A stretch of 64,000 nucleotides of DNA from Bacteroidota bacterium (GTDB lineage: Bacteria; Bacteroidota; Bacteroidia; AKYH767-A; 2013-40CM-41-45). The DNA is taken from assembly GCA_016708785.1 (NCBI GenBank), contig JADJFC010000006.1:185411-249410 (forward strand), written 5' to 3'. The notes beneath the pieces are model-generated. The model was given only the letters and a program-made list of their open reading frames with translations, was not told the origin of the DNA and made no database searches. The translations under genes were made by a program, and so were the position numbers. Of the stretch, positions 14,918 to 55,932 are shown in pieces. How positions within the stretch are numbered: position 1 is the stretch's first letter; the number at the start of each line of letters is the position of its first letter.

Positions 14918-14924
14918 ATTGCAA

Positions 14925-22423: not shown

Positions 22424-22478
22424 GTGCTACTTACCACTCACCAATTACAAATTACCTTTTACCACTTTACCACTCACC
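22424..22478. repeat. Family C repeat, inverted orientation (CCACTCACC words)
   Basis: GTGCTACTTACCACTCACCAATTACAAATTACCTTTTACCACTTTACCACTCACC. Between tetR and the HlyD-family gene. Confidence 0.75.
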
Positions 22479-27429: not shown

Positions 27430-27523
27430 ATGTATTGTTATTTGTTGTTTTTCGTTTTATAATAATGGGACGCGGTGGGTGGTGGAGAAGTTACAGGAGC
27501 TTGGAAAAAAATTCTAAAGTCAA

Positions 27524-27610
27524 AACACTAAGAACACAAGTTCACAAAAGTCCACGGAATTTGAGAATTATAGATTCCGTGGGCTTTTGTGAACTTGTGT
27601 TCTTAGTGTT
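27524..27610. repeat. Family G long hairpin (GTGAACTTGTG / CCACGGAAT words), about 37-bp stem
   Basis: AACACTAAGAACACAAGTTCACAAAAGTCCACGGAAT / 13-nt loop / ATTCCGTGGGCTTTTGTGAACTTGTGTTCTTAGTGTT with one mismatch. A related copy is at 47097-47159. Confidence 0.85.
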
Positions 27611-27630
27611 AAAAAATATTTTTGCTTTCC

Positions 27631-31600: not shown

Positions 31601-31662
31601 ATTGGATTGGATGAAAAGTAAAAATAGGAAAATAAAATCATCTGAAAGCTTAGCATAAATTT

Positions 31663-31706
31663 TTCTCCCGCAGAATTTCGCAGAATACGCAGAATAACCG
31701 CAGAAA
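31663..31706. repeat. Family B repeat (CGCAGAAT words), direct orientation
   Basis: TTCTCCCGCAGAATTTCGCAGAATACGCAGAATAACCGCAGAAAAAAC. Confidence 0.85.
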
Positions 31707-31837
31707 AAACTCTATGTCCTCAATTTATTTTCTTTGCGTTCGCTATCTTAAAAATTTCTCGAAGTTGAACTCAGATTAAAATATTCTGAAAACAAATTCG
31801 TCTACAAGATTGTTACAATAAAGAAATAGAAACATAT

Positions 31838-32461
31838 ATGAAAAAAGTTGGAATAATAGGTTCAGGAGCAGTGGCTAAAGCTTTGGCAAAAGGTTTTGTA
31901 GCCATTGGTTACGAAGTAAAAATGGGTACGCGTGACAAGAATAAACTCGCCGATATTCAAAATGTCATAGTTGGGAGTATCGCAGAGGCGGCTGATTTTG
32001 CTGACATTATTGTTTTGGCTGTAAAAGGAACTGTAGCTTCTGAAGTTCTCAAACAAATTCACACAGAAAATAAGATCGTAATTGACACGACCAATCCTAT
32101 CGATGACAAGCCTCCGATAAATGGCGTACTTCAATATTTCACGGATAAGAATAGTTCATTGGGAGAAATTCTCCAGAAAGAAAATCCGAATACGCATATC
32201 GTAAAGGCATTCAATTCTGTTGGAAGTGCATTTATGGTCAATCCGGATTTCGAGGGTATAAAGCCTACCATGTTCATTTGTGGAAACAGCGAAGGAGCAA
32301 AAGCGAAAGTGACAGAGATCTTAACTGCTTTCAATTGGGAAACAGAAGATGTAGGCAAGATCGAATCTGCGGGACCGATTGAGGCCCTTTGCCAATTGTG
32401 GTGTTTGCCGGGATTTTTGAATAATCAGTGGTCGCAGGCGTTTAAGTTTTTGAAGAAGTAA
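31838..32461 (+). CDS. NAD(P)-binding Rossmann protein of the F420-dependent NADP oxidoreductase (Npd/ProC-like) family
   Basis: 207 aa. N-terminal GxGxxA (KVGIIGSGAVAKALA). The size and pattern match the NADP_oxidoreductase coenzyme-F420-dependent family. Confidence 0.6.
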   Translation: MKKVGIIGSGAVAKALAKGFVAIGYEVKMGTRDKNKLADIQNVIVGSIAEAADFADIIVLAVKGTVASEVLKQIHTENKIVIDTTNPIDDKPPINGVLQYFTDKNSSLGEILQKENPNTHIVKAFNSVGSAFMVNPDFEGIKPTMFICGNSEGAKAKVTEILTAFNWETEDVGKIESAGPIEALCQLWCLPGFLNNQWSQAFKFLKK

Positions 32462-32482
32462 GCAATGGACTATGGATTAATA

Positions 32483-32523
32483 TTTCCCGCAGAGTTGCGC
32501 AGAATACGCAGAATAACCGCAGA
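32483..32523. repeat. Family B repeat, direct orientation
   Basis: TTTCCCGCAGAGTTGCGCAGAATACGCAGAATAACCGCAGA. Confidence 0.85.
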
Positions 32524-32662
32524 TTTTTAAACTGAGAATTTTCATGGTCTCATTGTGTCCCGATAGTTGTCGGGCTTGTGTTTTCTTTTCTCATTATTTC
32601 TCCTTTTTCTACTTTTTCTCTGTGTTTAATTTTTTTAGGCGCTATCAGATTTTTGAATTCAC

Positions 32663-33481
32663 TTAATCGCGAATAACTTTCCTGCTTATCACTTGACCAG
32701 CCTCATCTTTGATCCTAACAAAATAGATCCCTTTCTCATTCGGTAAAGTTAGCTTTGTATTATCTACAACAACTTCCACTTTTTGTCCTATTGAATTAAA
32801 AGCTTCGACGGAATTTATTTTCCCCTTGTACTGGAGATTAACTATTCCGTCAGTCGTTGGGTTTGGAATAATTTCAAAGCCTGTATTTCCATTCAGGTCA
32901 TCGATTGAATTTGGATTGCAATAGGTAAGAAATTCATTCGAAGAAAATGTAATTGCTGATGGCCCACCGCTGTCCATTAAATCAAAAGTGACTTTTATCC
33001 AGCCGGCACTTACTCCATTTGAATAGGCAATGTACTTTTCGAAAATTGTCCATGGACCCACGCAATCGAAACAACCATAATCGCCAAGTTTGTAGATCGT
33101 ATCATTCGTATATGTAAATGACATGTTACAATCAAGCGGATCACCTAAATCATAAATATTAATTCGTTTTACTCCGAAAGAATTCGTGTCGGAACAAATT
33201 GAGTAGACTGGATTGTGTACATATAAAAAAACAACATTGCCGCCATATGCTGTCTGCCCTTTGAAAAGCTTAAATGTTAAATCCGGAATGTTATCGCAAT
33301 TCAAATCAATTGATCCTGTTGTGTCCGTATCGTAATTTACAACAGAAAAACTGATACGTGGATCAACTATGTATCCACCCCCTGGAGGAATGTCTCCGGC
33401 TATTACTTTCGCTTTTGACGAATTGAATCCTGCGAGGAAAATTAAAATTAGTAAGAAGATTGAAGAGTATTTTGTTTTCAT
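32663..33481 (-). CDS. T9SS-secreted hypothetical protein with type-A C-terminal sorting domain
   Basis: 272 aa. Signal peptide. C-terminus IIPNPTTDGIVNLQYKG...GIYFVRIKDEAGQVISRKVI. Confidence 0.7.
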   Translation of the reverse strand: MKTKYSSIFLLILIFLAGFNSSKAKVIAGDIPPGGGYIVDPRISFSVVNYDTDTTGSIDLNCDNIPDLTFKLFKGQTAYGGNVVFLYVHNPVYSICSDTNSFGVKRINIYDLGDPLDCNMSFTYTNDTIYKLGDYGCFDCVGPWTIFEKYIAYSNGVSAGWIKVTFDLMDSGGPSAITFSSNEFLTYCNPNSIDDLNGNTGFEIIPNPTTDGIVNLQYKGKINSVEAFNSIGQKVEVVVDNTKLTLPNEKGIYFVRIKDEAGQVISRKVIRD

Positions 33482-33573
33482 TGGAAGAAGAATTAGAATA
33501 GTTGAAGTGTGATTAATCTAAATTAGTAAATAATAGATTTTAAAAATTCATTTTTGGAAAATAATTCTGAGGT

Positions 33574-33666
33574 TTTTCTGCGTATTCTGCGAAATTCTGC
33601 GGGAGAAAAAAAACACAAAAGATTATTTCCCGCAGAATTGCGCAGAATACGCAGAAAAACCGCAGA
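33574..33666. repeat. Inverted pair of family B repeats forming an about 30-bp-stem palindrome
   Basis: TTTTTCTGCGTATTCTGCGAAATTCTGCGGGAGAAA, a 20-nt spacer, then TTTCCCGCAGAATTGCGCAGAATACGCAGAAAAACCGCAGA. Confidence 0.85.
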
Positions 33667-33675
33667 GAATTATAC

Positions 33676-33716
33676 AAAAAAAGGCCCGCAGTGAAATTCA
33701 TTGCGGGCCTTTTGAA
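33676..33716 (-). terminator. Rho-independent terminator downstream of lepA (bidirectional form)
   Basis: AAAAAAAGGCCCGCAgtgaaattcatTGCGGGCCTTTTGAAAAAA. GC stem with A-run and T-run on both sides. Confidence 0.7.
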
Positions 33717-33729
33717 AAAAGTTCTTTTT

Positions 33730-35520
33730 TTATGAATCCAATTTAAGGACTGCTAAGAATGCTTGTTGAGGAATTTCGACGTTGCCTACTTGACGCATCC
33801 GCTTCTTTCCCTCTTTTTGTTTTTCGAGGAGTTTACGTTTACGGGAGATATCACCACCATAACATTTTGCAGTTACATCTTTACGTAAAGCTCTTACCGT
33901 TTCACGAGCTATGATCTTTGCTCCAATACTTGCCTGAATGATAATTTCAAATTGCTGACGTGTGATCAACTCTTTCAATTTCTCACACATTCTTTTACCG
34001 AAATCAAATGAGTGTGTACGATGTACCAAAGCTGACAATGCATCCACCGGTTCGCCATTCAGACGAATATCTAATTTCACAAGATCACTTTGATGGTAAC
34101 CGATCGGGTGATAATCGAATGATGCATATCCTTTACTGATTGATTTTAATTTGTCGTAGAAATCGAAAACGATCTCTGCAAGCGGCATGTTGAATGTTAA
34201 CTCAACTCTGTCTGTCGTAAGATAGGATTGACCCATGATCACACCACGCTTACCTATACACAATGTCATGATCGAGCCAACGTAGTCTGCTTTGGTGATG
34301 ATCTGTGCTTTGATATAAGGTTCTTCAATACGTTCCAGGTAATTTGGATCGGGCATTTCAGAAGGGTTATGAATATCACCTTCTGAGCCATCGGTCATGT
34401 ATGCTTTGTAAGATACGTTTGGAACAGTGGTGATCACTGTCATGTTGAACTCACGCTCTAAACGCTCCTGGATAATTTCCATGTGTAACATTCCTAAGAA
34501 TCCACAACGGAAACCGAAACCTAATGCAACAGATGACTCCGGCTGAAATACCAATGAAGCATCATTCAGCTGCAACTTCTCGATCGACTTACGTAACTCT
34601 TCGTACTCGTCAGTATCGACAGGATAAATTCCCGCGAATACCATTGGCTTCACATCTTCGAAACCTTTGATGGCTTCTATGCATGGATTATCTCTCGTCG
34701 TTAGTGTATCACCAACTTTTACTTCACTTGCTTCTTTGATGCCGGAAATGATATATCCAACGTCGCCTGTCTTTACAACATCGCGACTTTCTTTTTCCAA
34801 TTTTAAAATTCCGATATCATCGGCATTGTATTCTTTTCCGGTTGCAAAAAATTTCACTTTATCACCTTTACGGATCTCACCTTCCATGACTCTGTAATAA
34901 GCGATGATACCACGGAATGAATTGAAAACTGAATCAAAGATCAATGCTTTCAATGGTCCATTTGGATCTCCACTTGGTGGAGGAACACGTTTTACGATCG
35001 CTTCTAAAATATCGAAGATACCTAAACCGGTTTTTGCTGAAGCGGGAATAATAGAATCTCTATCGCAACCTACAAGGTCAACGATCTGATCTTTTACTAC
35101 TTCAGGATCGGCTGATGGAAGATCGATTTTATTTAAGACAGGAATAATTTCTAATCCGTGTTCGAGAGCGAGATATAAATTTGAAATTGTTTGTGCTTGT
35201 ATTCCCTGTGCTGCATCGACGATCAACAATGCGCCTTCACAGGCAGCAATTGAACGAGAAACTTCGTATGAAAAATCGACGTGACCGGGAGTGTCGATAA
35301 GGTTCAGAGTGTATTGTTCACCATCGAGATTGTATTGCATTTGTATAGCATGGCTCTTGATCGTGATGCCTCGCTCACGCTCAATATCCATATCGTCGAG
35401 GACCTGTGCTTTTTCGTCGCGCTTGCTGATTGTTTTTGTATACTCCAGCAATCGATCGGCTAACGTACTTTTACCGTGGTCAATATGGGCAATAATGCAG
35501 AAATTTCGAATGTTTTTCAC
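33730..35520 (-). CDS. lepA: Elongation factor 4 (LepA GTPase)
   Basis: Canonical LepA begins at the GTG codon giving (M)[24 protein letters not shown]. The G1-G5 GTPase motifs and the LepA C-terminal domain are present. The ORF-track ATG at 35592 lies inside a family-B repeat and adds 24 spurious residues ([13 protein letters not shown]...). Confidence 0.88.
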
Positions 35521-35563
35521 TTTTGGGGCAATTTTATTAGAAGGATTGCGAAGGTAGTGGAAA

Positions 35564-35656
35564 TCTGCGGTTTTTCTGCGTATTCTGCGCAATTCTGCGG
35601 GAAATAATTCTACATGTTTTTTCTCCCGCAGAATTGCGCAGAATACGCAGAAAAAC
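35564..35656. repeat. Inverted pair of family B repeats upstream of lepA
   Basis: TCTGCGGTTTTTCTGCGTATTCTGCGCAATTCTGCGGGAAA, a 16-nt spacer, then TTCTCCCGCAGAATTGCGCAGAATACGCAGAAAAAC. Confidence 0.85.
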
Positions 35657-35672
35657 AGAAGCCCCTTCGAGG

Positions 35673-36050
35673 CTATAATCCATTTACTTTTCTAAAAATG
35701 TGATCTTTGATTATATCAACATTAAAGTTCACTAAAATACCCAATTTATGTTTAGCCAATTTCAAGTAAGTTAACAGTTGCTTATGATGTACCGGTGCTA
35801 AAGACTCTATGGATTTTACCTCTATAATTACTTTATTCTCTACCAAAATATCCATTCTAAAACCTAACTCTAATTTAGCTCCATCATATACAACTGGCAA
35901 GCCAACTTCAACACGCACATTGAGATTTAATTTTCGAAGTTCATAAGCTAATGCCGCAACATACACTGATTCTAACAATCCCGGGCCCAATTGATAGTGA
36001 ACTTTCATTATTGCTCCACGGATAACGTAGGAGATTTCATTTTCTGTCAT
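35673..36050 (-). CDS. GxxExxY family protein (PD-(D/E)XK nuclease-like)
   Basis: 125 aa. GPGLLESVY contains the GxxExxY motif. The size and architecture are typical of this Bacteroidetes-abundant family. Confidence 0.75.
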
Positions 36051-36128
36051 TTTACAAAAGTAATGACAGATCAGTTTGAAAATTTTACAAAGACAACTTC
36101 CAATAATAAATTAAACAGCAAAGAAGCA

Positions 36129-37085
36129 TCAAAAAACTTTTTTGGCAATCCGACAAGTGGTTTCGGCGTTTCCCATGGTGTAGTAATGCAAACATGGAAC
36201 ACCGGCTTTTTTTAGTTCGATGGATTGATTTGTGCACCACTCGATTCCAAGTTCTTTTACTTCTTTATCGTTCTTGCATTTGTCAATTGCATCGGCAAGA
36301 TCTTCGGGTAGATCGACATGAAATATTTTAGGAAGGATAGTTGTTTGCTTTTTTGTTGTAACAGATTTTAATCCCGGAATGATCGGAACATTGATTCCAT
36401 TCTCTTTGCACTTCTCAACAAATTCAAAATATTTTTTATTATCGAAAAACATTTGCGTCACAATAAATTGTGCGCCTGCATCCACTTTCATTTTCAGATA
36501 ACGCAGATCCGTTTTGAGATTCGGCGCTTCGAAATGTTTCTCCGGATAACCGGCAACACCAAAACAAAAATCTGATGGCGTTACTTCCTGCAATTCTTCA
36601 TCGAGGTACACTCCGCGATTCATATTCGACACTTGCTGAACAAGATCCAATGCGAATTTGTGTCCGCCATAGTGAGGCTCAAATGCAGATTCAGATTTGA
36701 TCGCATCACCACGAAGCAACAACAAATTATCAATTCCCAAATAACTCAATTCAATAAGTGCATTCTCCGTTTCCTCTTTTGAAAATCCTCCGCAGATGAT
36801 ATGCGGAACCGGATCGACATTATAATGATTCAGAATCGCTGCACAAATACTTACTGTTCCCGGACGTTTACGAATGGAAAATTTCTCAAGCAATCCATTT
36901 TCACGCTTCTTGTAAACATATTCTTCACGATGATAAGTAACATCAACGAAAGCAGGCTTGAATTCCATGATCGGATCAAGAATATCATAAATACTTCTGA
37001 TACTCTTCCCTTTTAATGGTGGAAGAATCTCAACTGAGAAAAGTGTTTTGTCAATATTTTTTGAGAGGTGTTCGGTTACTTTCAT
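36129..37085 (-). CDS. metF: 5,10-methylenetetrahydrofolate reductase
   Basis: 318 aa TIM-barrel MTHFR with conserved FSVEILPP and HIICGG segments. Confidence 0.85.
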   Translation of the reverse strand: MKVTEHLSKNIDKTLFSVEILPPLKGKSIRSIYDILDPIMEFKPAFVDVTYHREEYVYKKRENGLLEKFSIRKRPGTVSICAAILNHYNVDPVPHIICGGFSKEETENALIELSYLGIDNLLLLRGDAIKSESAFEPHYGGHKFALDLVQQVSNMNRGVYLDEELQEVTPSDFCFGVAGYPEKHFEAPNLKTDLRYLKMKVDAGAQFIVTQMFFDNKKYFEFVEKCKENGINVPIIPGLKSVTTKKQTTILPKIFHVDLPEDLADAIDKCKNDKEVKELGIEWCTNQSIELKKAGVPCLHYYTMGNAETTCRIAKKVF

Positions 37086-37094
37086 TCTATTTAA

Positions 37095-37130
37095 GTGAGT
37101 GGTAATTGGTGAGTGGTGAGTGGTGAGTGG
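37095..37130. repeat. Family C repeat (GTGAGTGG tandem words)
   Basis: GTGAGTGGTAATTGGTGAGTGGTGAGTGGTGAGTGG between metF and ribE. Confidence 0.75.
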
Positions 37131-37171
37131 CAGGGGCTTTCTTTATTTCAGAGTAATTACTGCTAATTTAA

Positions 37172-37765
37172 TTATTCGTTCGTTATAGAAATGTATCGTC
37201 CGACGTACTTGCCAATAATATCAAACTCAATATTCACATCATCGCCGGGTTTCAGAGTATGGAAGTTTGTATTTTCCCATGTATATGGTATGATTGCAAC
37301 AGAGAAACTGCTTTTCTCTGAATCAACAACAGTTAAACTTACACCATTGATGCAAACAGATCCCTTTTCAACGGTAAGATGCATTGGAGATGGAGCATAT
37401 GAAAAATAAATTCTCCAGCTTCCGTCTTCATTAATGATCTTTTCAACTTTTGCCGTAGTATCTACGTGTCCTTGTACGATGTGTCCGTCGAGACGACCAT
37501 TCATTATCATACATCGCTCAAGATTTACTTTGTCGCCTATTATTAGTTTTCCGAGATTAGTTCTGATCAATGTTTCATCGATTGCAACTACATCATATTT
37601 ATTTCCGGCAACTTTTACAACAGTCAGACAAACACCATTGTGAGCTAAACTCTGATCGACCTTTAATTCAGAAGCAAATGAACATTCGAAAGTGAAACGA
37701 ATATTTGTGCCTTCTTTATGGATAGCACATACCTCCGCCATACTTTCAATAATTCCGGTAAACAT
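37172..37765 (-). CDS. ribE: Riboflavin synthase (alpha subunit)
   Basis: 197 aa. MFTGIIE N-terminus. Duplicated lumazine-binding half-domains (VNLE repeats). Confidence 0.88.
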   Translation of the reverse strand: MFTGIIESMAEVCAIHKEGTNIRFTFECSFASELKVDQSLAHNGVCLTVVKVAGNKYDVVAIDETLIRTNLGKLIIGDKVNLERCMIMNGRLDGHIVQGHVDTTAKVEKIINEDGSWRIYFSYAPSPMHLTVEKGSVCINGVSLTVVDSEKSSFSVAIIPYTWENTNFHTLKPGDDVNIEFDIIGKYVGRYISITNE

Positions 37766-37774
37766 ACTCTTGGT

Positions 37775-40126
37775 TTAATTATTACGTATTAATTGAATTG
37801 TGCCATGTAACTCCTGCACATCCTCGCCAAATATACGATAGAAATGGACTTTACACGTATAAAAATATACACCACTCACACAATCTGCTTTGGATTCCAG
37901 GTCTTTCCCATCCCAAAGCACATCTTTATTCGTTGTTTCAAAAACAATTTTTCCCCAACGATTGAAAATTTTCATTTCAATACTCTTCACATTTTTATAT
38001 GGCGGACAATTTGTTTCCTGATAATCAACCGCAGTAGTGCTATCGCATGGGTGAAAAATATCGTTGACACCATCTCCATCAGGAGTAAACACCGATGGCA
38101 AAACATATTGACGACAAGTATCAACACAAACTGCGAGAGCATTTATCGTTTCATTTCCCACAGAATCTACACCGGTAACTTTATAACATCCTGAAACAAT
38201 TTGAAGATTCGAATGAAGGTAGGTAGTATCATTTGGATCAAGTATAGAATCGATGCGCTCAAATACTGATGAATCCTGAGGGGAATAATAAATATAATAT
38301 TTCAGAACGTCATCTGAGCATAAATGATTCGGATTGATCCATGAAAGGAAATTCGAATTATCGAAACAATCCGACATTACTGTCAATGTAGTAGCGCATG
38401 GCGGAACATTGTCAATTGGTATTCCACACAATATTTGTGAACGATTATATAATGGTGTCGGAATTCCATCTCTTGAATAACTTCCCCGCGATTTAACGTA
38501 GTAACAATACTGTGTACCATTCGCCAAACCGGTATCTGAAAACTGCTTTACGCTTACTGTTGCAATTGAATCATAGATCAAAGTTGCAGGATTCAATCGA
38601 TAAATATCATAAGTGTTATTCGTCCAGGGAACATATTCTTCCCAAGTTAAATTCAATCGATTGTCCGTCGGACTGATGCTCAGAAATATTGTAGATGCAT
38701 TTGTAGAACTTCCTTTTAACGTTGGCACTCCGGCATTGTTATAATACAGATCGACTTTGTATGACCATGGACCAGCAACTGTGTTGATTGCATTATCTGT
38801 AATGGTTGTATCATCCAAATCATTCAACACAGCGAATTGGGTGAAGTTAGTTCCAAAGAAGTCAGATGAATGATATACTCTGTATTCGTGCGGTCCGGGG
38901 AATTGAATCGTATCTAATTCAGTTGGCTTACTCCAATCAACATAGACAGAACCTGTTGTTGCATCCGTTGTTAACACATCAGCATGGGTAAGTACAGGAA
39001 GGTCTTTCCTCAAAGTAGCACAAGTTTGAGGCGATGCACAACTTTCTGAACCGTCTGCAAAAAATGCCGTCACCAAATAACAGTACTCTACTCCTATTGC
39101 AAGACCTTGTCCGTAATTATTGTCGACATAATTTACCGAATCAATACTCTGCAGCGTTGCAAGCAATTGATAACCGGTATAAGAAGGTGCGCCATTGTCA
39201 CAAGGGCAATCAATTGTTCCAGGGTAGTTATTTATTCTTCGATAAACATAATAGCCGATCGCTTCTGCGCAAGGCGATGTACTCCAATTCAACTCAATTG
39301 CATTTCCATTTGCGACAGCAGTAACTGATGTCGGTGCCGGAGCAATGACACGAATGATTGTCGATCTCAATGCTACCAATGAGATACTATCCACCGGTTG
39401 TACATCGCGAGCTTTGAACTGCGCTACATAAGGACTTGAACGAACGTGATGACATTTTGCATCCCAAACAAAACGACCAATTACTGTATCGTTACTTGCA
39501 ACAGTAATTCTTGAATAGGTAGCAGCGTCACCACCAACAAGTGAATCAATAAAGACAGCGCCGTAAGCTGAGATCTCAACAAGATCTTGATCCGGGTCGA
39601 TGTTTGTCACATCAAAAGTCAAGGTCTCACCAGCAAGAACGCAAGTGTCAGAAACAGTTTCAATGAATGGGGGATTATTTGTACACTGTCCAATCAGGAT
39701 CTGCATATCCCTGCGAACATAACCGGCATACCTTCCCTGCTTATATTGTTTGATATGAAAAGCAACATTGTATTCGCCGGGTGTAACCGGAGAATTCCAA
39801 ATGAGATCTCCCGTAAAAGGATCCAGTGAAAATGACACCGACGCATTTGGAAATGTGTAACCGGGAATAGGCACGCCACCATCGCCGGCACATTGCACTA
39901 ATTCATAAGCGAGACTATCACCTTCCGGATCGAAAGCTCCGGGGTTATGAATAAATATTCGGTTCACACATCCTTTGTCAATTGGAGGATAAGTCAGAAT
40001 CGGTGAGCTGTTTGGTCCGAGGTAAGGATTAATGATCAGTTCGCTTTCAACATAAAATGGAACGTCAACAGAGTTTGGAATATTTATTACGCCTTCATTT
40101 CGATTCGGATCTGTAAAGCGTATCAA
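37775..40126 (-). CDS. Large T9SS type-B (CHU_C / gliding-motility-associated C-terminal domain) surface protein, main body
   Basis: 783 aa. The C-terminus YVLPSVFTPDGDGVNDIFHP...IFNRWGKIVFETTNKDVLWDGKD... is the CHU_C/T9SS type-B sorting domain. Ig-like repeats lie upstream. TTG start. A frameshifted N-terminal fragment at 40189-40452 belongs to the same gene. Confidence 0.8.
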   Translation of the reverse strand: MIRFTDPNRNEGVINIPNSVDVPFYVESELIINPYLGPNSSPILTYPPIDKGCVNRIFIHNPGAFDPEGDSLAYELVQCAGDGGVPIPGYTFPNASVSFSLDPFTGDLIWNSPVTPGEYNVAFHIKQYKQGRYAGYVRRDMQILIGQCTNNPPFIETVSDTCVLAGETLTFDVTNIDPDQDLVEISAYGAVFIDSLVGGDAATYSRITVASNDTVIGRFVWDAKCHHVRSSPYVAQFKARDVQPVDSISLVALRSTIIRVIAPAPTSVTAVANGNAIELNWSTSPCAEAIGYYVYRRINNYPGTIDCPCDNGAPSYTGYQLLATLQSIDSVNYVDNNYGQGLAIGVEYCYLVTAFFADGSESCASPQTCATLRKDLPVLTHADVLTTDATTGSVYVDWSKPTELDTIQFPGPHEYRVYHSSDFFGTNFTQFAVLNDLDDTTITDNAINTVAGPWSYKVDLYYNNAGVPTLKGSSTNASTIFLSISPTDNRLNLTWEEYVPWTNNTYDIYRLNPATLIYDSIATVSVKQFSDTGLANGTQYCYYVKSRGSYSRDGIPTPLYNRSQILCGIPIDNVPPCATTLTVMSDCFDNSNFLSWINPNHLCSDDVLKYYIYYSPQDSSVFERIDSILDPNDTTYLHSNLQIVSGCYKVTGVDSVGNETINALAVCVDTCRQYVLPSVFTPDGDGVNDIFHPCDSTTAVDYQETNCPPYKNVKSIEMKIFNRWGKIVFETTNKDVLWDGKDLESKADCVSGVYFYTCKVHFYRIFGEDVQELHGTIQLIRNN

Positions 40127-40188
40127 GAAACGTCCATTACCGGCATAAGTATGAACGTGCTTATATGTATTCTTACTAATGTCATCGG

Positions 40189-40452
40189 CTAACTGAATCT
40201 TCGACTCTCTGTAAAAACGGTCGGACCGGAACCATCACCCAGATAAACAGAATCCAGTCTTGGGCGATCGACATTCACAGACGATGTTTTTGTAAATGTT
40301 ACGATTGTAATTCTATACTTGTAATCAAATGAACTAGCACCTATCCATTCATAGGTAATCTCACCGGCACGATTATGTGTTGCATAACCTGATTTACCAA
40401 ATGCGATCAGAAAAAATAATAAAAGAAAGAAACGAAGTTGTTTCGTCCTCAT
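40189..40452 (-). pseudogene. N-terminal fragment (signal peptide + conserved ATHNRAGEITYEW start) of the CHU_C T9SS gene, separated from the main body by an apparent frameshift
   Basis: 87-aa ORF MRTKQLRFFLLLFFLIAFGKSGYATHNRAGEITYEWIG...YLGDGSGPTVFTE. In the main-body frame the sequence continues upstream of 40126 as ...ISKNTYKHVHTYAGNGRF, matching the conserved N-terminal block of this protein family. Joining them needs a 1-nt indel, probably in the A5 run at 40214-40218. Confidence 0.6.
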
Positions 40453-40461
40453 AGGATATGA

Positions 40462-41586
40462 TTAATAGTTTATAACTTGTTGTTCCATTACATCAGGCAT
40501 CTGGCGATGCTCATATTGTTGCGTTCTCAATTTAGGAATAAATCCGGCTTCACGAATCGCTTCCTGAATTCCATTGGAAGTAAAGCGATGTGGTGCACCT
40601 GCGGCAGACACTACATTCTCTTCTATCATGATCGATCCAAAATCGTTGGCTCCTGCATGCAAACAGATCTGCGCAATTTCCTTTCCTACAGTCAACCAGC
40701 TTGCCTGGATATTCTGAATGTTTGGCAACATGATCCGACTAATTGCAATGGTACGAATATAATCTTCGCCTGTCACTGTATTGTGAACACCTTTTATTCT
40801 ATTCAGCAAAGTACCTTCGTCCTGAAATGGCCAAGGAATAAATGCAATAAATCCTTTAGCATTTGCAGGCTTTTCACTTTGCACCTGGCGTAACCAAACA
40901 AGATGTTCAAAGCGTTCTGCAACTGTTTCTATATGACCAAACATCATCGTTGCTGATGTAGTTATATTCAATTGATGCGCGGCACGCATGACGTCAAGCC
41001 ATTCTCGTCCGGAACATTTTCCTTTAGAGATGAGGCGACGAACCCGGTCGTTCAAGATTTCTGCACCGGCTCCCGGCAATGAATCTAATCCGGCATCATG
41101 CAAAGTTCTCAGCACTTCTGTATGTGTACTTCCTGCTAGTTTAGTGATATGTGCAATTTCAGGGGGCCCAAGTGCATGAAGCTTCAATGTAGGAAAAAGC
41201 TTTTTCAATTCACGGAACAATCCTGCGTAATAATCTAAACCAAGATCGGGGTGATGACCACCTTGAAGAAGTAATTGCTCGCCACCGTAACGGAATGTTT
41301 CCTCGATTTTCCCCTTATATTGCTCAATTGTAGTTATATACGATTCAGCATGGCCCGGTATCCGGTAGAAATTGCAGAATTTGCAATTGGCGATACAAAC
41401 ATTTGTTGTATTCAGATTTCTGTCAATTATCCAGGTAACATTATTATCCGGATGCAAGACTTTTCTCATTCTGAATGCAACATCCATTAACTCGGCAGTA
41501 GGTACTGTTTCATAGAGAAACTGCCCCTCTTCTGCTGATAAAAAATCAAATTCTAGTGCTCTTTTTAAGAGTTGCTCTGAAACCAT
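40462..41586 (-). CDS. Radical SAM enzyme of the futalosine menaquinone pathway (MqnC/MqnE family)
   Basis: 374 aa. CxxxCxFC cluster motif CIANCKFCNF. The length and the C-terminal TIM-barrel extension are typical of MqnC/MqnE/CofH-type enzymes. MqnC versus MqnE cannot be resolved without alignment. Confidence 0.6.
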   Translation of the reverse strand: MVSEQLLKRALEFDFLSAEEGQFLYETVPTAELMDVAFRMRKVLHPDNNVTWIIDRNLNTTNVCIANCKFCNFYRIPGHAESYITTIEQYKGKIEETFRYGGEQLLLQGGHHPDLGLDYYAGLFRELKKLFPTLKLHALGPPEIAHITKLAGSTHTEVLRTLHDAGLDSLPGAGAEILNDRVRRLISKGKCSGREWLDVMRAAHQLNITTSATMMFGHIETVAERFEHLVWLRQVQSEKPANAKGFIAFIPWPFQDEGTLLNRIKGVHNTVTGEDYIRTIAISRIMLPNIQNIQASWLTVGKEIAQICLHAGANDFGSIMIEENVVSAAGAPHRFTSNGIQEAIREAGFIPKLRTQQYEHRQMPDVMEQQVINY

Positions 41587-41687
41587 ATTAATTGTGGAAA
41601 GTTCTGCCTAAACAGAGTATTCATTTCTTTTTTCGTTAGTTGAAAAATATTTTGCCTAATTTCCGCACTTCAAAAATACAACATTAT

Positions 41688-43121
41688 ATGCAGACCACAA
41701 TCCAATTAACACCTTCGTACAAAACTGCAGATTCCATCATTTTACTTCTGGATGACAAAGGAAGCGTCCCTTCCGGTCTTTTTTCAACCACAGAATCTGA
41801 ATTCATCAAAAACGAGCTTAAGGCCGACAAAAAGAGCATTGTAATCAATCAATACAAACGATTGATTTGCATCTATCAGCCTGATTACTCAAAAGATACC
41901 GATTCATTACTGGAACTTTGCCGTCGTATCGGCGATACCTTTCAAGGAGCTTTAAACCGCTCCAAAGAACGTCGTGTTGTGATTGCAGATCTGGGTGAAA
42001 ATCCAAACCTGGCTATGGCTGTAGCAGAAGGTGCCGCTTTGGGAAATTATCAGTTCCTAAAATATCGTGCAGGAAGAAAAAAAGAGGCTAATTCTCTTCG
42101 TGAAATTGCCATCAAAAGCAAAGGACTTCAGGCTGCACAAGTTCGCAACCTGCAGAATATGGTCGATGCAGTTTTACGTGCCCGTACTCTTGTCAATGAA
42201 CCTCAGAATTTCATTACTGCAACTCAACTTGCGAAAGAGTTTGTTGCAATGGGAAAAGAAGCCGGTTTCAAAGTGACGGTTTTCAATAAAGCAAAGATCA
42301 AATCACTGAAAATGGGTGGACTACTTGCCGTAAACAAAGGAAGTCAGCAACCACCGACATTTACAGTAATGGAATACAAACCAAAGAACGCTAAGAACAA
42401 AAAACCATTAGTTCTTATTGGTAAAGGCGTTGTTTATGATACAGGTGGATACAGTTTAAAGCCTACACCAAATTCAATGGATTACATGAAAAGTGATATG
42501 GCCGGTGGAGCTGCTGTTGGTTCAGCAATGTATGCCATTGCAAAATCGAAACTTCCCATCCATGTAGTTGCATTAGTTCCTGCAACCGACAACCGTGTTG
42601 CTGAAGATGCTTATACTCCCGGTGATGTGATCACAATGATGAGCGGACATACAGTTGAAGTTTTGAATACAGATGCAGAAGGTCGTTTGATTCTTGCTGA
42701 TGCATTACACTATGCTAAAAAATACAAGCCTGAACTGGTTTTAGATTTCGCCACACTTACCGGAGCTGCCGCTGCTGCTGTTGGTTCTTTCGGAATCGTA
42801 TGTATGGGAACTCCTACTGACGAACAGAGAATAAAATTAAACAAAAGCGCTAATCGCGTATACGAACGTCTTGCTGAATTCCCATTCTGGGATGAGTACG
42901 ATGATCTGATCAAATCGGATATTGCAGATATGAAAAATATCGGCGGACCAACTGGTGGAGCAATCACTGCCGGAAAATTCCTTCAACGTTATGTCGATTA
43001 TCCTTGGATGCACTTCGATATCGCAGGACCTTCTTACTTACACTCTCCATCAAGTTACAGAGGAAAAGGCGGAACCGGTGTTGGAGTGAGATTCTTGTTT
43101 GACTTTGCTCAGTCGCGATAG
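41688..43121 (+). CDS. pepA: Leucyl aminopeptidase, M17 family
   Basis: NTDAEGRL signature. Catalytic Lys/Asp/Glu block VGKGVVYDTGGYSLKP. An alternative upstream ATG at 41640 adds 16 residues. Confidence 0.85.
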   Translation: MQTTIQLTPSYKTADSIILLLDDKGSVPSGLFSTTESEFIKNELKADKKSIVINQYKRLICIYQPDYSKDTDSLLELCRRIGDTFQGALNRSKERRVVIADLGENPNLAMAVAEGAALGNYQFLKYRAGRKKEANSLREIAIKSKGLQAAQVRNLQNMVDAVLRARTLVNEPQNFITATQLAKEFVAMGKEAGFKVTVFNKAKIKSLKMGGLLAVNKGSQQPPTFTVMEYKPKNAKNKKPLVLIGKGVVYDTGGYSLKPTPNSMDYMKSDMAGGAAVGSAMYAIAKSKLPIHVVALVPATDNRVAEDAYTPGDVITMMSGHTVEVLNTDAEGRLILADALHYAKKYKPELVLDFATLTGAAAAAVGSFGIVCMGTPTDEQRIKLNKSANRVYERLAEFPFWDEYDDLIKSDIADMKNIGGPTGGAITAGKFLQRYVDYPWMHFDIAGPSYLHSPSSYRGKGGTGVGVRFLFDFAQSR

Positions 43122-43166
43122 TTGTCAGTTTGAAACGCTGCGCGTTTTTTAAACACGAAGTTCATT

Positions 43167-43232
43167 AAAATTTTAGCCACGAATACACGAATAAAAAAAT
43201 AATTTATTCGTGAATTCGTGGCTAAAATTTTA
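43167..43232. terminator. Bidirectional terminator hairpin between convergent pepA and pdxA
   Basis: AAAATTTTAGCCACGAATACACGAATAAA / 8 nt / TTTATTCGTGAATTCGTGGCTAAAATTTT. About 27-bp stem with one mismatch. A/T runs flank it on both sides. Confidence 0.7.
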
Positions 43233-43247
43233 GCGGACTCACGATTT

Positions 43248-44339
43248 CTAACGATCGCTCGTCTGCTTTGAAAAAGCCAGAGGCTTCGCATTAATGGTAT
43301 CGTACTCTTCGCGTTTGGCGAGGATGTCGATAGCTGTATAAATTGCTTCGCGGAAAGAATCTTCGTTTGCTTCTCCTTTACCTGCGATATCGTAAGCTGT
43401 TCCGTGATCAGGAGACGTGCGAACGATTGGTAATCCGGCTGTGAAATTTACACCGCTTGAAAAATTCAGTGCTTTGAAAGGAACTAATCCCTGGTCGTGG
43501 TACATGGCAAGAACTGCATCGAATTTACGATGTGTTCCCGATCCGAAAAATCCATCGGCAGAATAAGGACCATACACAAAAATATTTTCGTCAAAACATT
43601 TCTTCACTGCAGGAATGATAATGTCTTTTTCTTCTTTGCCAATTAGTCCATCGTCGCCTGCATGCGGATTTAATCCGAGTACAGCGATCTTTGGCTTACG
43701 AATACCGAAGTCGCGTTTCAATGATGCATTGATCAGTTTGATTTTCTTGGTGATCTTTTCGATCGTGAGTGTTGCTGCAACATCTTTTACCGGAATATGT
43801 CCGGAAACAACTGCAACTTTCAAATTCTCACTCACTAAAAACATGAGGTAATCAGGTGAGTTAAATTCTTCTGCGAGATATTCTGTGTGACCGTTAAATC
43901 TGAATTGATCAGATTGAATATTGCTTTTGTTGATTGGCGCAGTAACAAGTACATCGATCTTTTTATCTTTCAGATCGGCAACTGCATGTTGTAATGAAAG
44001 CAATGCATACTTTCCGCCATCAGCATTTACCTGACCGAATTCTACATGCACATCTTCTTCCCAGCAATTGATCACATTTGTTTTTCGCAAAATGACTTCT
44101 GAAGAATTTTTTACTGTCAGATATTGAAAATCGTTTAAGTTCAAATGCTTTCTATGCAATGAAACCATTTTGTTACTTGCATAGATAACAGGAGTGCATA
44201 CCTGATGCATACGGCTGTCGAAGAAGGTTTTGATGATGACTTCCAATCCAACTCCATTCGTATCGCCGCAGCTGATACCAACTCTGATTCTGCCTTCCTG
44301 CTCTTGATGACTCATAGTAACTTTTGATCTAGGGTGCAA
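43248..44339 (-). CDS. pdxA: 4-hydroxythreonine-4-phosphate dehydrogenase
   Basis: N-terminal IRVGISCGDTNGVGLEVIIK. His/Asp metal-site segments (GHTEYL, NPHAGD, AMYHDQGL). A likelier start is the internal ATG at 44315 (MSHQEQ...). Confidence 0.85.
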   Translation of the reverse strand: MHPRSKVTMSHQEQEGRIRVGISCGDTNGVGLEVIIKTFFDSRMHQVCTPVIYASNKMVSLHRKHLNLNDFQYLTVKNSSEVILRKTNVINCWEEDVHVEFGQVNADGGKYALLSLQHAVADLKDKKIDVLVTAPINKSNIQSDQFRFNGHTEYLAEEFNSPDYLMFLVSENLKVAVVSGHIPVKDVAATLTIEKITKKIKLINASLKRDFGIRKPKIAVLGLNPHAGDDGLIGKEEKDIIIPAVKKCFDENIFVYGPYSADGFFGSGTHRKFDAVLAMYHDQGLVPFKALNFSSGVNFTAGLPIVRTSPDHGTAYDIAGKGEANEDSFREAIYTAIDILAKREEYDTINAKPLAFSKQTSDR

Positions 44340-44400
44340 ACATACCTTTTCGGGGTGACAAATTCAATGGAAATTACGCCCGAATGTGTTTGGAATTGTT

Positions 44401-44446
44401 ATTTCCCGCAGAATTGCGCGGAATACGCAGAATAGCCGCAGAAAAA
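44401..44446. repeat. Family B repeat, direct orientation
   Basis: ATTTCCCGCAGAATTGCGCGGAATACGCAGAATAGCCGCAGAAAAAC. It abuts the stop of the downstream esterase gene. Confidence 0.85.
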
Positions 44447-45700
44447 CTAATTCTTGATAAACTTTCGTACTTCAGTTTTATCTTTGGTTTGAATGGAAAC
44501 AAAATAGGTTCCACTCGAAAGTGAAGATAGATCAATTTTAGTTTTTGGTTCAGAAATGTTCAATAGCAACAATTCCTTTCCTGAAATATCATTGATTCTG
44601 ATTTTATCAATTTTACCTACATTATTTTTCAATGCAATACATAGTTCCGTTGAAACGGGGTTGGGATAAATTTCAAATGAACGTTCTATCTCACTTACTG
44701 TTGTATTCAAATTGAAAGTATTCGGCAATGGTTCAGGATCAGAAGGAGTGCAACCAAGTTGTGTGAATAAGAAATTACTTACGAAGCGGACTGTGGTGTC
44801 CATATATGCAACGTTAGAATAATATGGAACATGTCCAGCACCGAAATAGGTATACATCTGATTGGTTTGCCCAATTGAATCTCCATAGGCGGCAATGGAA
44901 TAACTTCCATCCACTTGCATAATTGGGAAAATGCCAAGTAGATTAATTACATCTGTTGCATAAGGAACAACATCATCAATGGTTCCGTGCATAGACACAA
45001 AAGGAACATCCGTAATTTTTACCAACGTCTTATTGCCCAAAGCACCACAAAGATTTACGACAGCATTTACATCTGATGAGTAACCACTGTTTCCGCTATT
45101 CCCTTCCAGATCGCCTAAAATACTAGTGTCTATTGTCGCAGGCAATTCACTATATTCATTGAGGTATGCAAGATGTAATGCTGTAAATGCACCGGCAGAA
45201 CTTCCGCCTGCATAGATAATATTTGGATCGATCTGATAATCATTTGTTGTTGCAGCGTCTTTTCTGAAAAAACGTATTGCCGCTTTCATATCCTGAACAG
45301 CTCTGTAGACAGTAGCTGTTGTATTAGCTTCATTATACGGGAATGCAATTCCTAATCTGTAATTGATCGTAGCGCAAACATATCCGCGTTTTGCAAAATG
45401 TTCGCAAAGTTGTTGAACATCCAGATCATTTTTTGTTCCGCTTAAAAAACTGCCGCCATGAGCCCAAACAATCAATGGACGCGCAGCCATTGTATCGCCT
45501 TGCGGCTGATAAATATCCATTGTTAAAATAGTATTCACTCCATTGTAATCGAGATTCGCACCGAAGACTACATCATTCGTTGTATCTAAACTTGAAAAAA
45601 CTTCTGTATCGAATCGTGCTGACGAACAATCGACAAGTTGCGCACTCGATGTAAAATATCCTGAAAACAATATGGTGATAAGCGTAACGATTTTTTTCAT
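44447..45700 (-). CDS. T9SS-secreted alpha/beta-hydrolase (esterase/lipase-like) with type-A CTD
   Basis: 417 aa. Signal peptide. HGGSF oxyanion-hole region and GGSSAG nucleophile elbow (GxSxG). C-terminal IYPNPVSTELCIAL...GTYFVSIQ CTD. Paralog of 47218-48774. Confidence 0.75.
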   Translation of the reverse strand: MKKIVTLITILFSGYFTSSAQLVDCSSARFDTEVFSSLDTTNDVVFGANLDYNGVNTILTMDIYQPQGDTMAARPLIVWAHGGSFLSGTKNDLDVQQLCEHFAKRGYVCATINYRLGIAFPYNEANTTATVYRAVQDMKAAIRFFRKDAATTNDYQIDPNIIYAGGSSAGAFTALHLAYLNEYSELPATIDTSILGDLEGNSGNSGYSSDVNAVVNLCGALGNKTLVKITDVPFVSMHGTIDDVVPYATDVINLLGIFPIMQVDGSYSIAAYGDSIGQTNQMYTYFGAGHVPYYSNVAYMDTTVRFVSNFLFTQLGCTPSDPEPLPNTFNLNTTVSEIERSFEIYPNPVSTELCIALKNNVGKIDKIRINDISGKELLLLNISEPKTKIDLSSLSSGTYFVSIQTKDKTEVRKFIKN

Positions 45701-46050
45701 GGTGTGGAGAATTTGGATGAAGATATGTTTTTTCCGTTATATAACAATACATCAGAAAATTCGCAAAAAAAATCCGTGGTCCTTTAGTTTGTATCGGCTA
45801 TTTGATTTTAGAAGAATACAATTACAAGGACCTTTAAAATGGAATTAAAAAGTATTGTAATTTGTGAATAAGTTAACCACATCAACAGGGGAACTTCATC
45901 CGTGGAAGAGGTTTTGAAGCCTATAAGGAGATTGACCCCCCTGTTGCTGTGACTAAAGCAAACTCAAATAGAAATTGAGACATTAAAGTCTATTATCAAG
46001 GGCTTGAGTATACTTTAGTTGTGGTTAATGATACATCTAAAACAAATTTA

Positions 46051-47057
46051 CATGAAAAACATTACCAACACATTCTTGGGATTGATGTTTCAAAAAAACA
46101 TTGGATCTTTCCTTGGTCATCGCCGGGACAAACAAAACGTTGTCTATGAACAGTTTGAAAACAATGCAAAATCGATTCGTCGAATTGGTTTGTGGTTAAA
46201 AAAGTACAATATTGAATGGGATCGGGTATTGGTCTGTATGGAATTCACAGGAATTTATAATCGCCCAATGCTGCAATTTTGCACGCTTAAAAAAATTGCA
46301 GTTTGGATGATCATGCCAATTGAGATCATTCGTTCGATGGAATTCAAAGAGGGAAAAACGATAAAATAGATTCTAAAAAAATAGCTATGTATGCAATTCT
46401 GCATCATGACAAAATAAAAGTATGGCAGCCGGTGTCAAAGAATATAGTCTTGTTAAAGGATCTTCTCGCATTACGTCAGAGATTGATCAAGGTCAGCAAA
46501 ATATTATTGCAACCGATAAATGAATTGAAAGCTATAAAAGATAAAGTTGCAGCAAAGAAACCAAAGTACATTGTAAATCGAGCATTGAGCAGCTCAAGAA
46601 GGAGCTTCACAAAACAGAAGCAAGAATAAAAGATTATAACAGAGGATGAAGTATTGCAAAAAAATTACAACCTGTTGCTAACTATCGGAATTGGGGCTTA
46701 TACAGCCTTAGATTTAGTCTGCTACACAAATAACTCGAATACTACCAAGAGGCTAAACAATTGGCTTGCTACGCTGGAACCGCTCCATTTGAACACTCCT
46801 CAGGAACTAGTGTTCGAGGAAAAACAAGAGTAAGTAAAATGGCTAACCAAAGTCTAAAGACCAACTTAACTTTAGGGGCTGGTCTGTAATAAGAACAAAG
46901 GGGTTCTTGAGAAAATACTATGAAAGGAAACTTGACAAGGGAAGGCAAAAATGTTAGTAGTAAATGCTGTTCGGAATAAACTATTACATATTGCTAGCGC
47001 GGTAATTAGAAATCAAATGCCGTTCGATAGGAATTATTCTAGCCCATTGGCTAGTTA
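46051..47057 (+). mobile_element. Decayed IS110-family transposase gene (multiple frameshifts/stops), remnant insertion sequence
   Basis: Three-frame reading reconstructs MKNITNTFLGIDVSKKTLDLSLVIAGTNKT... / ...FENNAKSIRRIGLWLKKYNIEWDRVLVCMEFTGIYNRPMLQF... / ...IPGVGLYTALDLVCYTNNSNTTKRLNNWLATLEPLHLNTPQELVFEEKQE... (frame-equivalent of ...LACYAGTAPFEHSSGTSVRGKTRVSKMANQSLKTNLTLGAG...), and VVNAVRNKLLHIASAVIRNQMPF. This covers the DEDD N-terminal domain and C-terminal domain of IS110/IS1111-type transposases. ORF-track entries 46019-46369 and 46387-46629 are fragments of it. Confidence 0.75.
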
Positions 47058-47096
47058 ATTAAAAAAACGCTGGGGTATTGTTTTATAACATAGAAA

Positions 47097-47159
47097 TCTC
47101 CTTGTGAACTTGTGATCTACGTGTTTAAAAAACACAAAGTACACAAGTTCACAAGGAGA
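47097..47159. repeat. Family G hairpin (GTGAACTTGTG words) downstream of the IS110 remnant
   Basis: TCTCCTTGTGAACTTGTG / 27-nt loop with an inner GTGTTT-AAACAC stem / CACAAGTTCACAAGGAGA, followed by CCACGGAATATTGAG as in the 27524-27610 copy. Confidence 0.8.
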
Positions 47160-47217
47160 CCACGGAATATTGAGGGATGCAATTCGAATTACGAATTACG
47201 AATCTCTATTCACAGTA

Positions 47218-51710: not shown

Positions 51711-51814
51711 CTTTTCTCTTTGTCTTTGGTATCAAACCTAGGTTATTAGTGTGAAATAATCAAGGTTTAATGCGGAAATGTTTTAACATTTTTTGCGTGG
51801 GAAAGGGTAAAAAA

Positions 51815-51874
51815 AATGGTTTAAAAAGTTTAATGGGTTAAATGCGATTGTCAAATTAAACTCTTTAAACCATT
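51815..51874. repeat. Family H element: 25-bp word GTTTAAAAAGTTTAATGGGTT within an 11-bp-stem hairpin
   Basis: AATGGTTTAAAAAGTTTAATGGGTTAAATG ... CTCTTTAAACCATT. The same 25-mer recurs at 55856-55880. Confidence 0.75.
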
Positions 51875-52006
51875 TGAACCAACAAATCCACCTCAAAAGT
51901 TTTAAAGGAATTTACTTTTGCATTATTTAAAATTATTTTCAATTTAACACTTCCAATTAGAATAATAGTTTACTTTGGTATCGTTGAATCTTTTAATTGA
52001 ATTTTT

Positions 52007-55844: not shown

Positions 55845-55855
55845 TGCATTCGATC

Positions 55856-55918: not shown

Positions 55919-55932
55919 CATACTTCAACTTG

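Follow-up and report, generated by a model that had tools for sequence, protein, structure and literature searches.

CGCAGA-word foldback repeats in an uncultured Bacteroidota bacterium and their association with genes for GxxExxY proteins

Introduction

Dispersed palindromic repeats with a dedicated enzyme have so far been mainly the repetitive extragenic palindromes (REPs) and their doublets (REPINs), which are paired with HUH transposases, the REP-associated tyrosine transposases (RAYTs). Free-standing or intron-borne PD-(D/E)XK homing endonucleases, e.g., I-Ssp6803I, are another case in which a very small nuclease gene lies within specific DNA. For RAYT subclass 2.6, short GC hairpins predominate among the listed REPs, and a 122-nt word-like hairpin is recorded once, in Belliella (PMC6006769). 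In a survey of the PD-(D/E)XK nucleases, the family PF13366 was listed as "Unknown" and was described with multiple transfers between divisions (PMC3424549). Here we analyze a 64,000-nt stretch of DNA from a Bacteroidota bacterium (the window; positions 185,411 to 249,410 of contig JADJFC010000006.1, assembly GCA_016708785.1), in which seven repeat units made of CGCAGA words lie around lepA and a gene encoding a GxxExxY protein of the PF13366 family.

An earlier note on this DNA had recognized the seven repeats and taken them for a REP-like or miniature inverted-repeat transposable element (MITE)-like family. That note had not noticed that the repeats are linked to a neighboring gene for a GxxExxY nuclease, and this link would explain the family. 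We propose with moderate confidence that the seven units are members, lacking an open reading frame (ORF), of a lineage-wide CGCAGA foldback family and that they are the cognate flanking repeats of GxxExxY genes, in a REPtron-like partnership.

Results

Repeat units in the window

The sequence CGCAGAAT occurs 17 times in the window, compared with an expectation of 1.95 ± 1.4, and 15 of the 17 occurrences fall inside seven repeat units. An nhmmer profile made from 99 distinct arms of the family matched exactly these seven units, all with E values of at most 1.4e-14, and the next best match in the window had an E value of 0.22. The seven copies listed previously are therefore real, lie about where they had been placed, and have no further relatives in the window. 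Each unit reads (T)TTCCCGCAGAATTG CGCAGAATA CGCAGAAAAAC CGCAGA, which amounts to four CGCAGA(A) words spaced 10, 9, and 11 nt apart and not the 8-nt phase that had been suggested. The units and their immediate surroundings are as follows.

31661-31705, + strand: copy 1, solo unit with four CGCAGA words (nhmmer E = 3e-16)
32481-32524, + strand: copy 2, solo unit (nhmmer E = 4.6e-17)
33565-33609, - strand: copy 3 (profile match)
33623-33667, + strand: copy 4 (profile match)
33566-33666: foldback 1, copies 3(-) and 4(+), with 38- to 44-bp arms and a 23-nt A/T-rich loop (-62.8/-65.9 kcal/mol)
33686-33712, - strand: canonical GC-rich hairpin with a T run just past the lepA stop, not a family member
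33730-35520, - strand: lepA (EF4), 596 aa, GTG start at 35520 and stop at 33730
35563-35607, - strand: copy 5 (profile match)
35619-35659, + strand: copy 6 (profile match)
35564-35661: foldback 2, copies 5(-) and 6(+) (-64.8/-67.7 kcal/mol)
35660-35674, - strand: small hairpin AGCCTCGAAGGGGCT between the GxxExxY stop and the repeat arm
35673-36050, - strand: gene for a GxxExxY protein, 125 aa (TIGR04256, PF13366 PDDEXK_3; 137.1 bits versus a cut-off of 35)
44399-44443, + strand: copy 7, solo unit (profile match)

The two inverted pairs are foldbacks of 98 to 101 nt. They are present, as the earlier note had held, and fold strongly, with stems of 38 to 44 bp instead of the approximately 30 bp given there (-62.8 to -67.7 kcal/mol; z = -10.7 to -15.4). 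The solo units folded no better than shuffled sequences (z = -0.9, +0.3, and -2.1). The foldbacks sit on opposite sides of lepA. Foldback 1 lies beyond the stop at 33730, past the lepA terminator, and precedes the start of a Por_Secre_tail gene by 85 nt. Foldback 2 lies upstream of the start at 35520; it begins 12 nt past the GxxExxY stop, following the small hairpin, and ends 44 nt before the lepA start. Intrinsic-terminator prediction did not call either foldback, and only the hairpin at 35660-35674 together with the T run of the arm looked terminator-like. This module, a small stem with a TCGAAG/TTCG loop abutting TCTGCGG, was seen again at other sites of the family. As for the solo units, copy 1 occupies a divergent intergenic region between a TMEM175-like gene and an F420_oxidored gene, copy 2 lies 13 nt past the F420_oxidored stop and is followed by a small terminator-like hairpin (32559-32574), and copy 7 lies 3 nt beyond the stop of a carboxylesterase gene (44447-45700, - strand).

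A lineage-wide family of word-array foldbacks

A search with an exact 27-nt degenerate pattern retrieved 80 metagenome contigs holding 101 sites, which represent at least 43 distinct site clusters. All of the sites in the 43 clusters are intergenic, and none lies within a gene. The neighbors are ordinary genes, such as those for RecO, RimM, DoxX, and hemerythrin. From additional sites in flanking sequence, we estimate a density of approximately 1 site per 35 kb, so the five sites within 13 kb of the window form a local cluster.

The basic arm consists of (T)TTCCCGCAGA and one to three further CGCAGA words at a spacing of 9 to 12 nt. Forty-nine sites are foldbacks in "-+" order, which have a constant total length of 98 to 99 nt and CCCGCAGA ends facing a loop of approximately 22 nt. 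Another 12 are outward-facing "+-" pairs with a spacer of 60 to 190 nt, whose ends are often small hairpins with TTCG/GAAG loops, and 39 of the 101 sites are solo arms. One tandem array of four foldbacks with a period of 146 was found (locus L160; loci retrieved in our searches are designated by L numbers).

Among 33 distinct foldbacks, 95% of the stem cells are paired, and pairing breaks off precisely at the fourth word. Invariant words are joined by linkers that vary and covary between the arms: pair 31-73 of the alignment, for example, is UA in 17 foldbacks, AU in 6, GC in 5, and CG in 2. Double-sided changes were counted in 40 cells, compared with 19.7 ± 2.8 in shuffles, and none of 500 shuffles reached 40. 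The combination of invariant words with drifting linkers and periods argues for sequence-specific recognition of the CGCAGA hexamer.

Comparison of related contigs revealed how the units change. In two pairs of loci from related strains with flanks in the same orientation, the 22-nt loop of one is the exact reverse complement of the other (L163:1847-1946 versus L165:168-267 and L171:6000-6098 versus L172:3320-3419), and at one further site the loop type has been swapped (L141 versus L175). Whole words of 9 or 11 nt have been gained or lost between relatives. The same orthologous site can also hold different occupants, either 98 nt versus 342 nt of another subfamily or one hairpin versus two. 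The inversions and the swap point to recombination between the arms, and recombination alone could explain the covariation of the arms. Together, the loop inversions and the insertions and deletions of word units indicate interaction and slippage of the arms as DNA.

A literature search with the repeat strings gave no matches, and Rfam contained no family at the gathering score, with only sub-threshold matches to generic miRNA hairpins. Several identities were considered and rejected. The units are not integron attC sites, since their ends are TCTGCGG/CCGCAGA and not RYYYAAC...GTTRRRY and their neighbors, which include housekeeping genes such as lepA and recO, have mixed orientations. CRISPR was rejected from the sequence, DNA uptake sequences were rejected because the words are not overrepresented outside the units, and iterons in helical phase were rejected because the period differs from 9 to 12 nt between lineages.

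The GxxExxY gene and its repeats

The gene next to foldback 2 also carries PF13366 in its precomputed annotation. Its product has the D...(D/E)xK motif and the αβββαβ core fold that characterize PD-(D/E)XK enzymes, and the triad D67, E77, and K79 is invariant in 31 homologs. The protein is predicted to be a minimal Cas4/RecB-like PD-(D/E)XK nuclease; no solved structure was detectable for it by sequence. The family takes its name from the NCBI annotation pipeline and comprises at least 8,000 clusters at 90% identity. In the papers that we read among those mentioning GxxExxY, PF13366, PDDEXK_3, or TIGR04256, no function is given.

Only 1 of the 43 site clusters within the species adjoins a GxxExxY gene, and for this reason the association was first set aside. 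It was revived by the same adjacency in other phyla and then tested at loci ascertained by protein sequence. The asymmetry is what would be expected of a trans-acting single-copy gene, and it matches that between REPs and RAYTs.

The other phyla came from a scan of GTDB (596 Gb) with the 16-mer CGCAGAATACGCAGAA, which yielded 114 loci; the pattern is too short, and most of the matches are chance matches or unrelated word arrays. Three of the loci carry a GxxExxY homolog. In L044 (Armatimonadota) and L094 (Bacteroidota), a word array lies at the 3' end of the GxxExxY gene, and in L056 (Acidobacteriota), three TCTGTG-type words follow the homolog. At least three GCAGA words lie near 63 of the 114 matches, and for 33 of the matches, inverted TCTGCG partners occur at a distance of up to 200 nt. 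These counts indicate that inverted arrays of CGCAGA words exist in many phyla, with the reservation that the 16-mer query itself favors word arrays. Examples include L052 (Verrucomicrobiae), L009, L016, and L058 (Planctomycetaceae), L002, L061, and L064 (Thermoguttaceae and an uncultured planctomycete), L089, and L105. At the 63 GTDB loci, which belong to many phyla, the word arrays lie mostly beside unrelated ordinary genes, and no gene family was enriched among the neighbors of arrays in other phyla. In L068 and L110 (Chitinophagales metagenome-assembled genome [MAG]), CGCAGA "+-" units are nested in a larger perfect inverted repeat, gctgaggccaccggccgg...ccggccggtggcctcagc.

A second set of seven homologous loci was fetched by GxxExxY protein sequence only, and six of them have gene neighborhoods unlike that of the window. 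All seven are bracketed by arms of CCCGCAGA words and carry 6 to 20 CGCAGA/TCTGCG words within 350 nt of the gene, compared with approximately 0.3 expected, and few or none further out. L218/219 shares the synteny of the window and has a 560-nt array of short foldbacks (period of approximately 73 in L218). The GxxExxY gene lies between TrmE and a YARHG-domain gene in L220, between ribonucleotide reductase and an HD-domain gene in L222/223, and between word arrays on both sides in L221, from Aequorivita. In L230, the gene is framed by 27-nt terminal inverted repeats, consisting of a + arm upstream (CCCGCAGAtagCGCAGAtcttCGCAGA) and a near-perfectly complementary - arm on the downstream side. In L224, an IMG/VR contig whose protein is 59% identical, one unit of a tandem array has its inner part replaced by the ORF and lies next to ORF-less units. 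Finally, in L225-229, from Tara marine samples, the gene lies inside one "+-" unit of a tandem array, beside ORF-less units; a difference of one unit (+155 nt, partly Ns) separates L225 from L226.

The Tara ORF looks as if it has been inserted into one unit, as approximately 35 nt (CGCAGAtaaCCGCAaaaaatgggttaaaaa) are duplicated on either side of it and an intact ORF-less unit lies just upstream. Such a structure would be expected if the arrays were a pre-existing host repeat and GxxExxY were a free-standing, homing-endonuclease-like invader cutting and inserting there, the ORF-less copies being its targets and not its products. The arrangement in L224 and the multiple transfers between divisions described for PF13366 (PMC3424549) also fit this explanation. 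We nevertheless consider it unlikely. The protein is 70 to 76% identical across genera, and the order MTHFR-gxx-lepA is kept in three or four species; this pattern points to a gene inherited mostly vertically over the long term and under purifying selection, unlike typical homing endonuclease genes. A homing invader also leaves the uniformity of the arrays at more than 40 sites unaccounted for.

Genomic context of the repeats and alternative origins

Many foldbacks lie 0 to 15 nt from a stop codon, and 16 of 40 sites are in convergent regions, which make up 16% of background regions. These positions, the extreme stability of the hairpins, and the terminator-like junctions of small hairpins with T-rich arms could mean that the units are host cis-elements only, that is, terminators, RNA 3'-end stabilizers, or binding arrays for host proteins, which are spread by duplication or recombination and shared by GxxExxY genes. 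However, 7 of the 40 sites are divergent, solo arms do not fold, and the mismatches in the stems, which are too few to be informative, show no G·U versus A·C bias relative to transcription (3 versus 2). Near-identical 98-nt units with common loop types at more than 40 unlinked sites require a copying process, and conservation of the hexamer across phyla beside one gene family is hard to square with a terminator function. We give a purely cis-acting role only a small chance of being the full explanation.

Less probable still is that the units are classical REPs or REPINs moved by a RAYT (HUH Y1 transposase) encoded elsewhere, with the adjacency to GxxExxY being incidental. The units do resemble REPINs and bacterial interspersed mosaic elements (BIMEs) in their behavior, since they form doublet hairpins and mosaic arrays, lie outside genes, and persist for long times, and the Bacteroidetes subclass 2.6 of RAYTs is flanked by "atypical secondary structures" without GTAG (PMC6006769). 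Most of the REPs listed for that subclass are short GC hairpins, however, and the units here contain no GT[AG]G or CGTC foot and are not palindromes when single. In approximately 1.6 Mb including the window, we found no ORF with HUH...Y motifs and no phmmer match to an approximate RAYT probe, which is a weak test. Moreover, incidental adjacency cannot explain the presence of words at seven of seven protein-ascertained GxxExxY loci.

A conventional MITE, i.e., an internal-deletion derivative of a DDE-transposase insertion sequence (IS), is largely refuted and very improbable: although the terminal inverted repeats, the size of approximately 100 to 200 nt, and the intergenic location would suit one, the best direct repeats flanking 20 foldbacks had lengths matching the shuffled null (one 8-nt and two 5-nt cases were within expectation) with no excess of TA flanks, no related transposase lay near any site in the retrieved loci, no copies of the CGCAGA unit were found in plasmid or viral collections, and the ORF-carrying relatives encode the 125-aa PD-(D/E)XK protein instead. 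The target-site duplications and TA flanks that the earlier note had proposed to look for were thus not above chance. Its REP-like label is partly right, in that the family is dispersed, hairpin forming, and intergenic; the units are not MITEs in the strict sense.

Stability of the repeats

The source is an uncultured Bacteroidota species from activated sludge, and its LepA is identical in four NCBI MAGs and several ENA assemblies. We compared the window with 15 loci from other strains that are 97 to 99.4% identical. At all five repeat sites, a copy is present in every strain whose contig reaches the site; the seven copies are fixed in about ten strains, with no presence/absence polymorphism among them. 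Whole-word changes account for all differences between the strains in their repeats: L117 has an additional 11-nt word, the window alone lacks a CCG in copy 6, and heptamers have been gained or lost in another repeat family. The CCG, part of the fourth word at window position 35656, is present in nine of nine other strains, and its absence reflects either genuine strain variation or a fault of the assembly. In L117 (GCA_016707305.1), the extra TCTGCGG word is in the copy 5 arm, in the region equivalent to 35560-36050. The GxxExxY gene region of this strain is full of 3- to 7-nt indels and is either a pseudogene or a product of long-read error.

Beyond the species, relatives with flanks that are only 75 to 85% identical retain many of the family's sites at orthologous positions, copies 6 and 7 among them; copy 7, for instance, is kept in L156 and L181 (approximately 80% identity). 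At orthologous sites with flanks 60 to 86% identical, the arms are approximately 95 to 100% identical, and the loops and flanks drift. The repeats are not proliferating locally, contrary to what had been suggested from the window alone: all seven copies occur in each strain of the species that covers their sites, and copies persist in relatives. In L156 (positions approximately 6100-6232, corresponding to 44394-44446 of the window), copy 7 abuts a hairpin of AACACAAG/CACGGAAT words that is absent from the window, a presence/absence difference of another repeat family at the same junction.

The lepA gene and its flanks

Residue 1 of Escherichia coli LepA (3cb4) aligns with residue 25 of the extended lepA ORF, and public gene calls already give the 596-aa product. 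By this alignment, the start of lepA is GTG 35520, as had been proposed. The false extension of 24 codons begins at TTG 35592 inside copy 5, and not at an ATG in copy 6 (the ATG at 35615 is out of frame). Orthologous LepA proteins lack the extension, and their loci carry the same copies.

In L212, in which the neighboring protein is 70% identical, CGCAGA elements with a 12-nt period occupy the same lepA-flanking regions. No CGCAGA elements were found at the lepA flanks in L214-216 (61% identity), although the terminator hairpin of lepA is conserved there and in L212, i.e., also in relatives without the repeats. The 44-nt gap between foldback 2 and the lepA start (35521-35563) contains TAAAATTG, which is close to TAnnTTTG, the -7 box of Bacteroidota. 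lepA may be transcribed from a promoter abutting the repeat or by read-through from the GxxExxY gene.

Other repeats in the window

Long intergenic hairpins of at least five other families also consist of short tandem words, namely, GGTCAAAGG, CGTTTAT, AACACAAG/CACGGAAT, CACGAAT, and GTTTAA. All lie a few nucleotides from stop codons. Two are in the nuo operon, between nuoG and nuoH and between nuoH and nuoI, and therefore cannot be efficient terminators. A further family consists of arrays of GTGAGTG/GTAAGTG heptamers; at 30897, 37111, and 37126, these arrays vary among strains by entire heptamers or units of 11 nt.

2982-3050: other word hairpin
11614-11680: other word hairpin
13745-13806: other word hairpin
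14862-14918: other word hairpin
27517-27617: other word hairpin
43159-43239: other word hairpin
47093-47163: other word hairpin
51814-51875: other word hairpin
55853-55921: other word hairpin
4451-4479: heptamer array
5361-5406/5513-5551: heptamer arrays (some of the heptamer arrays are inverted pairs)
22425-22456: heptamer array
approximately 30897: heptamer array
37086-37132: heptamer array

An ORF at 46019-46369 (region 46019-46629) weakly resembles the IS110 DEDD transposase domain, with a score below the threshold (E = 0.0017), and the segment from approximately 45700 to 47215 is absent from the approximately 80%-identical relative L156. This segment may be an IS remnant beside the hairpin at 47093.

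Discussion

The anatomy of the repeats, their dispersal, their pattern of conservation, and their association with GxxExxY genes are direct observations. From these, we infer that GxxExxY proteins would bind or cut the repeats and mobilize them, and that the repeats may have some role at the RNA level. The following model is suggested. The GxxExxY nuclease would cut DNA, whether folded or duplex, at the CGCAGA words, whose invariant sequence it would recognize. This activity would disperse the repeats, and their uniformity would be maintained either by it or by ordinary recombination between arms. Some genomes have the GxxExxY gene itself inside an outward-facing pair or inside a single unit of a tandem array (L230, L224, and L225-229). 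In the window, the single GxxExxY gene has kept a foldback 12 nt past its stop, and the remaining copies lie in nearby intergenic regions. When transcribed, foldbacks would be very stable hairpins a few nucleotides past stop codons and are probably 3'-end barriers or insulators, a role that would explain why they are tolerated.

Several points weigh against the proposed partnership. The GxxExxY gene of the window has repeats only on its 3' side, with none in 36051-36128. The orientation of the arms next to the gene is not uniform, the first downstream arm being "-" in five loci and "+" in three. The protein-ascertained homologs, all at least 59% identical to the query, belong to a single subfamily, in which the link could have been passed down as baggage, for example as a conserved terminator or regulatory site. 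The loop inversions were seen in assemblies of short metagenomic reads, and the orientation of the loop could in principle have been a choice of the assembler. Finally, overlapping contigs showed different occupants at orthologous sites and no empty site, and the case for mobility is for this reason made by dispersal and by differences in site occupants only.

A very common nuclease family of no assigned function is physically tied to a specific, phylum-spanning repeat. The association gives GxxExxY proteins a concrete substrate hypothesis and a first testable partner, and it accounts for a class of long intergenic hairpins in uncultured Bacteroidota. Annotators should note that reading through these repeats yields spurious ORFs and N-terminal extensions. 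A bolder generalization, which we offer tentatively and regard as doubtful at present, is that GxxExxY proteins are the dedicated nucleases of an undescribed superfamily of word-array foldbacks and the PD-(D/E)XK counterpart of the RAYT-REPIN system. In that case, the enzyme would read CGCAGA and create, move, or homogenize the repeats in Bacteroidota, Acidobacteriota, Armatimonadota, and probably the Planctomycetes-Verrucomicrobia-Chlamydiae (PVC) phyla.

Comparison with known systems

Among known systems, PD-(D/E)XK homing endonucleases differ from GxxExxY, which is highly conserved and syntenic across species and whose proposed target is multicopy and not a unique allele. MITEs such as Correia and RUP elements resemble the family in being short and noncoding, with long terminal inverted repeats, and in seeming to derive from an ORF-carrying form, and Drosophila foldback (FB) elements resemble it in having inverted arms made of short tandem words. 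In contrast to these elements, the CGCAGA family has no target-site duplications, and no DDE transposase was found near its sites.

The closest parallels are the REP/REPIN-RAYT systems of E. coli and Pseudomonas fluorescens and the BIMEs of enterobacteria. Like REPs and REPINs, the CGCAGA repeats are extragenic, are present in high copy number, persist for a long time at orthologous sites, and form inverted doublets that fold as long hairpins with compensated changes in the arms; in both systems, a low-copy nuclease gene is flanked by repeats, most of which lie far from the gene. The associated protein here is a PD-(D/E)XK (Cas4/RecB-like) nuclease rather than an HUH Y1 transposase, and the unit consists of four direct words without a foot (consensus TCTGCGG...CCGCAGA, with no GTAG, GTGG, or CGTC) rather than a 20- to 40-nt palindrome. 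Like BIMEs, the family is a mosaic in which repeats alternate in orientation, linker modules recur, and tandem arrays occur (L160, L141, L151/L192, and L218); hairpins with TTCG/GAAG loops recur next to the arms, and other repeat families colocate with the units. The sequences of BIMEs are unrelated. With a unit that is not a palindrome and has no foot, and with no HUH enzyme found in the sequences searched, the CGCAGA family falls outside the REPs; it would work like the REP/REPIN-RAYT system and looks like the BIMEs.

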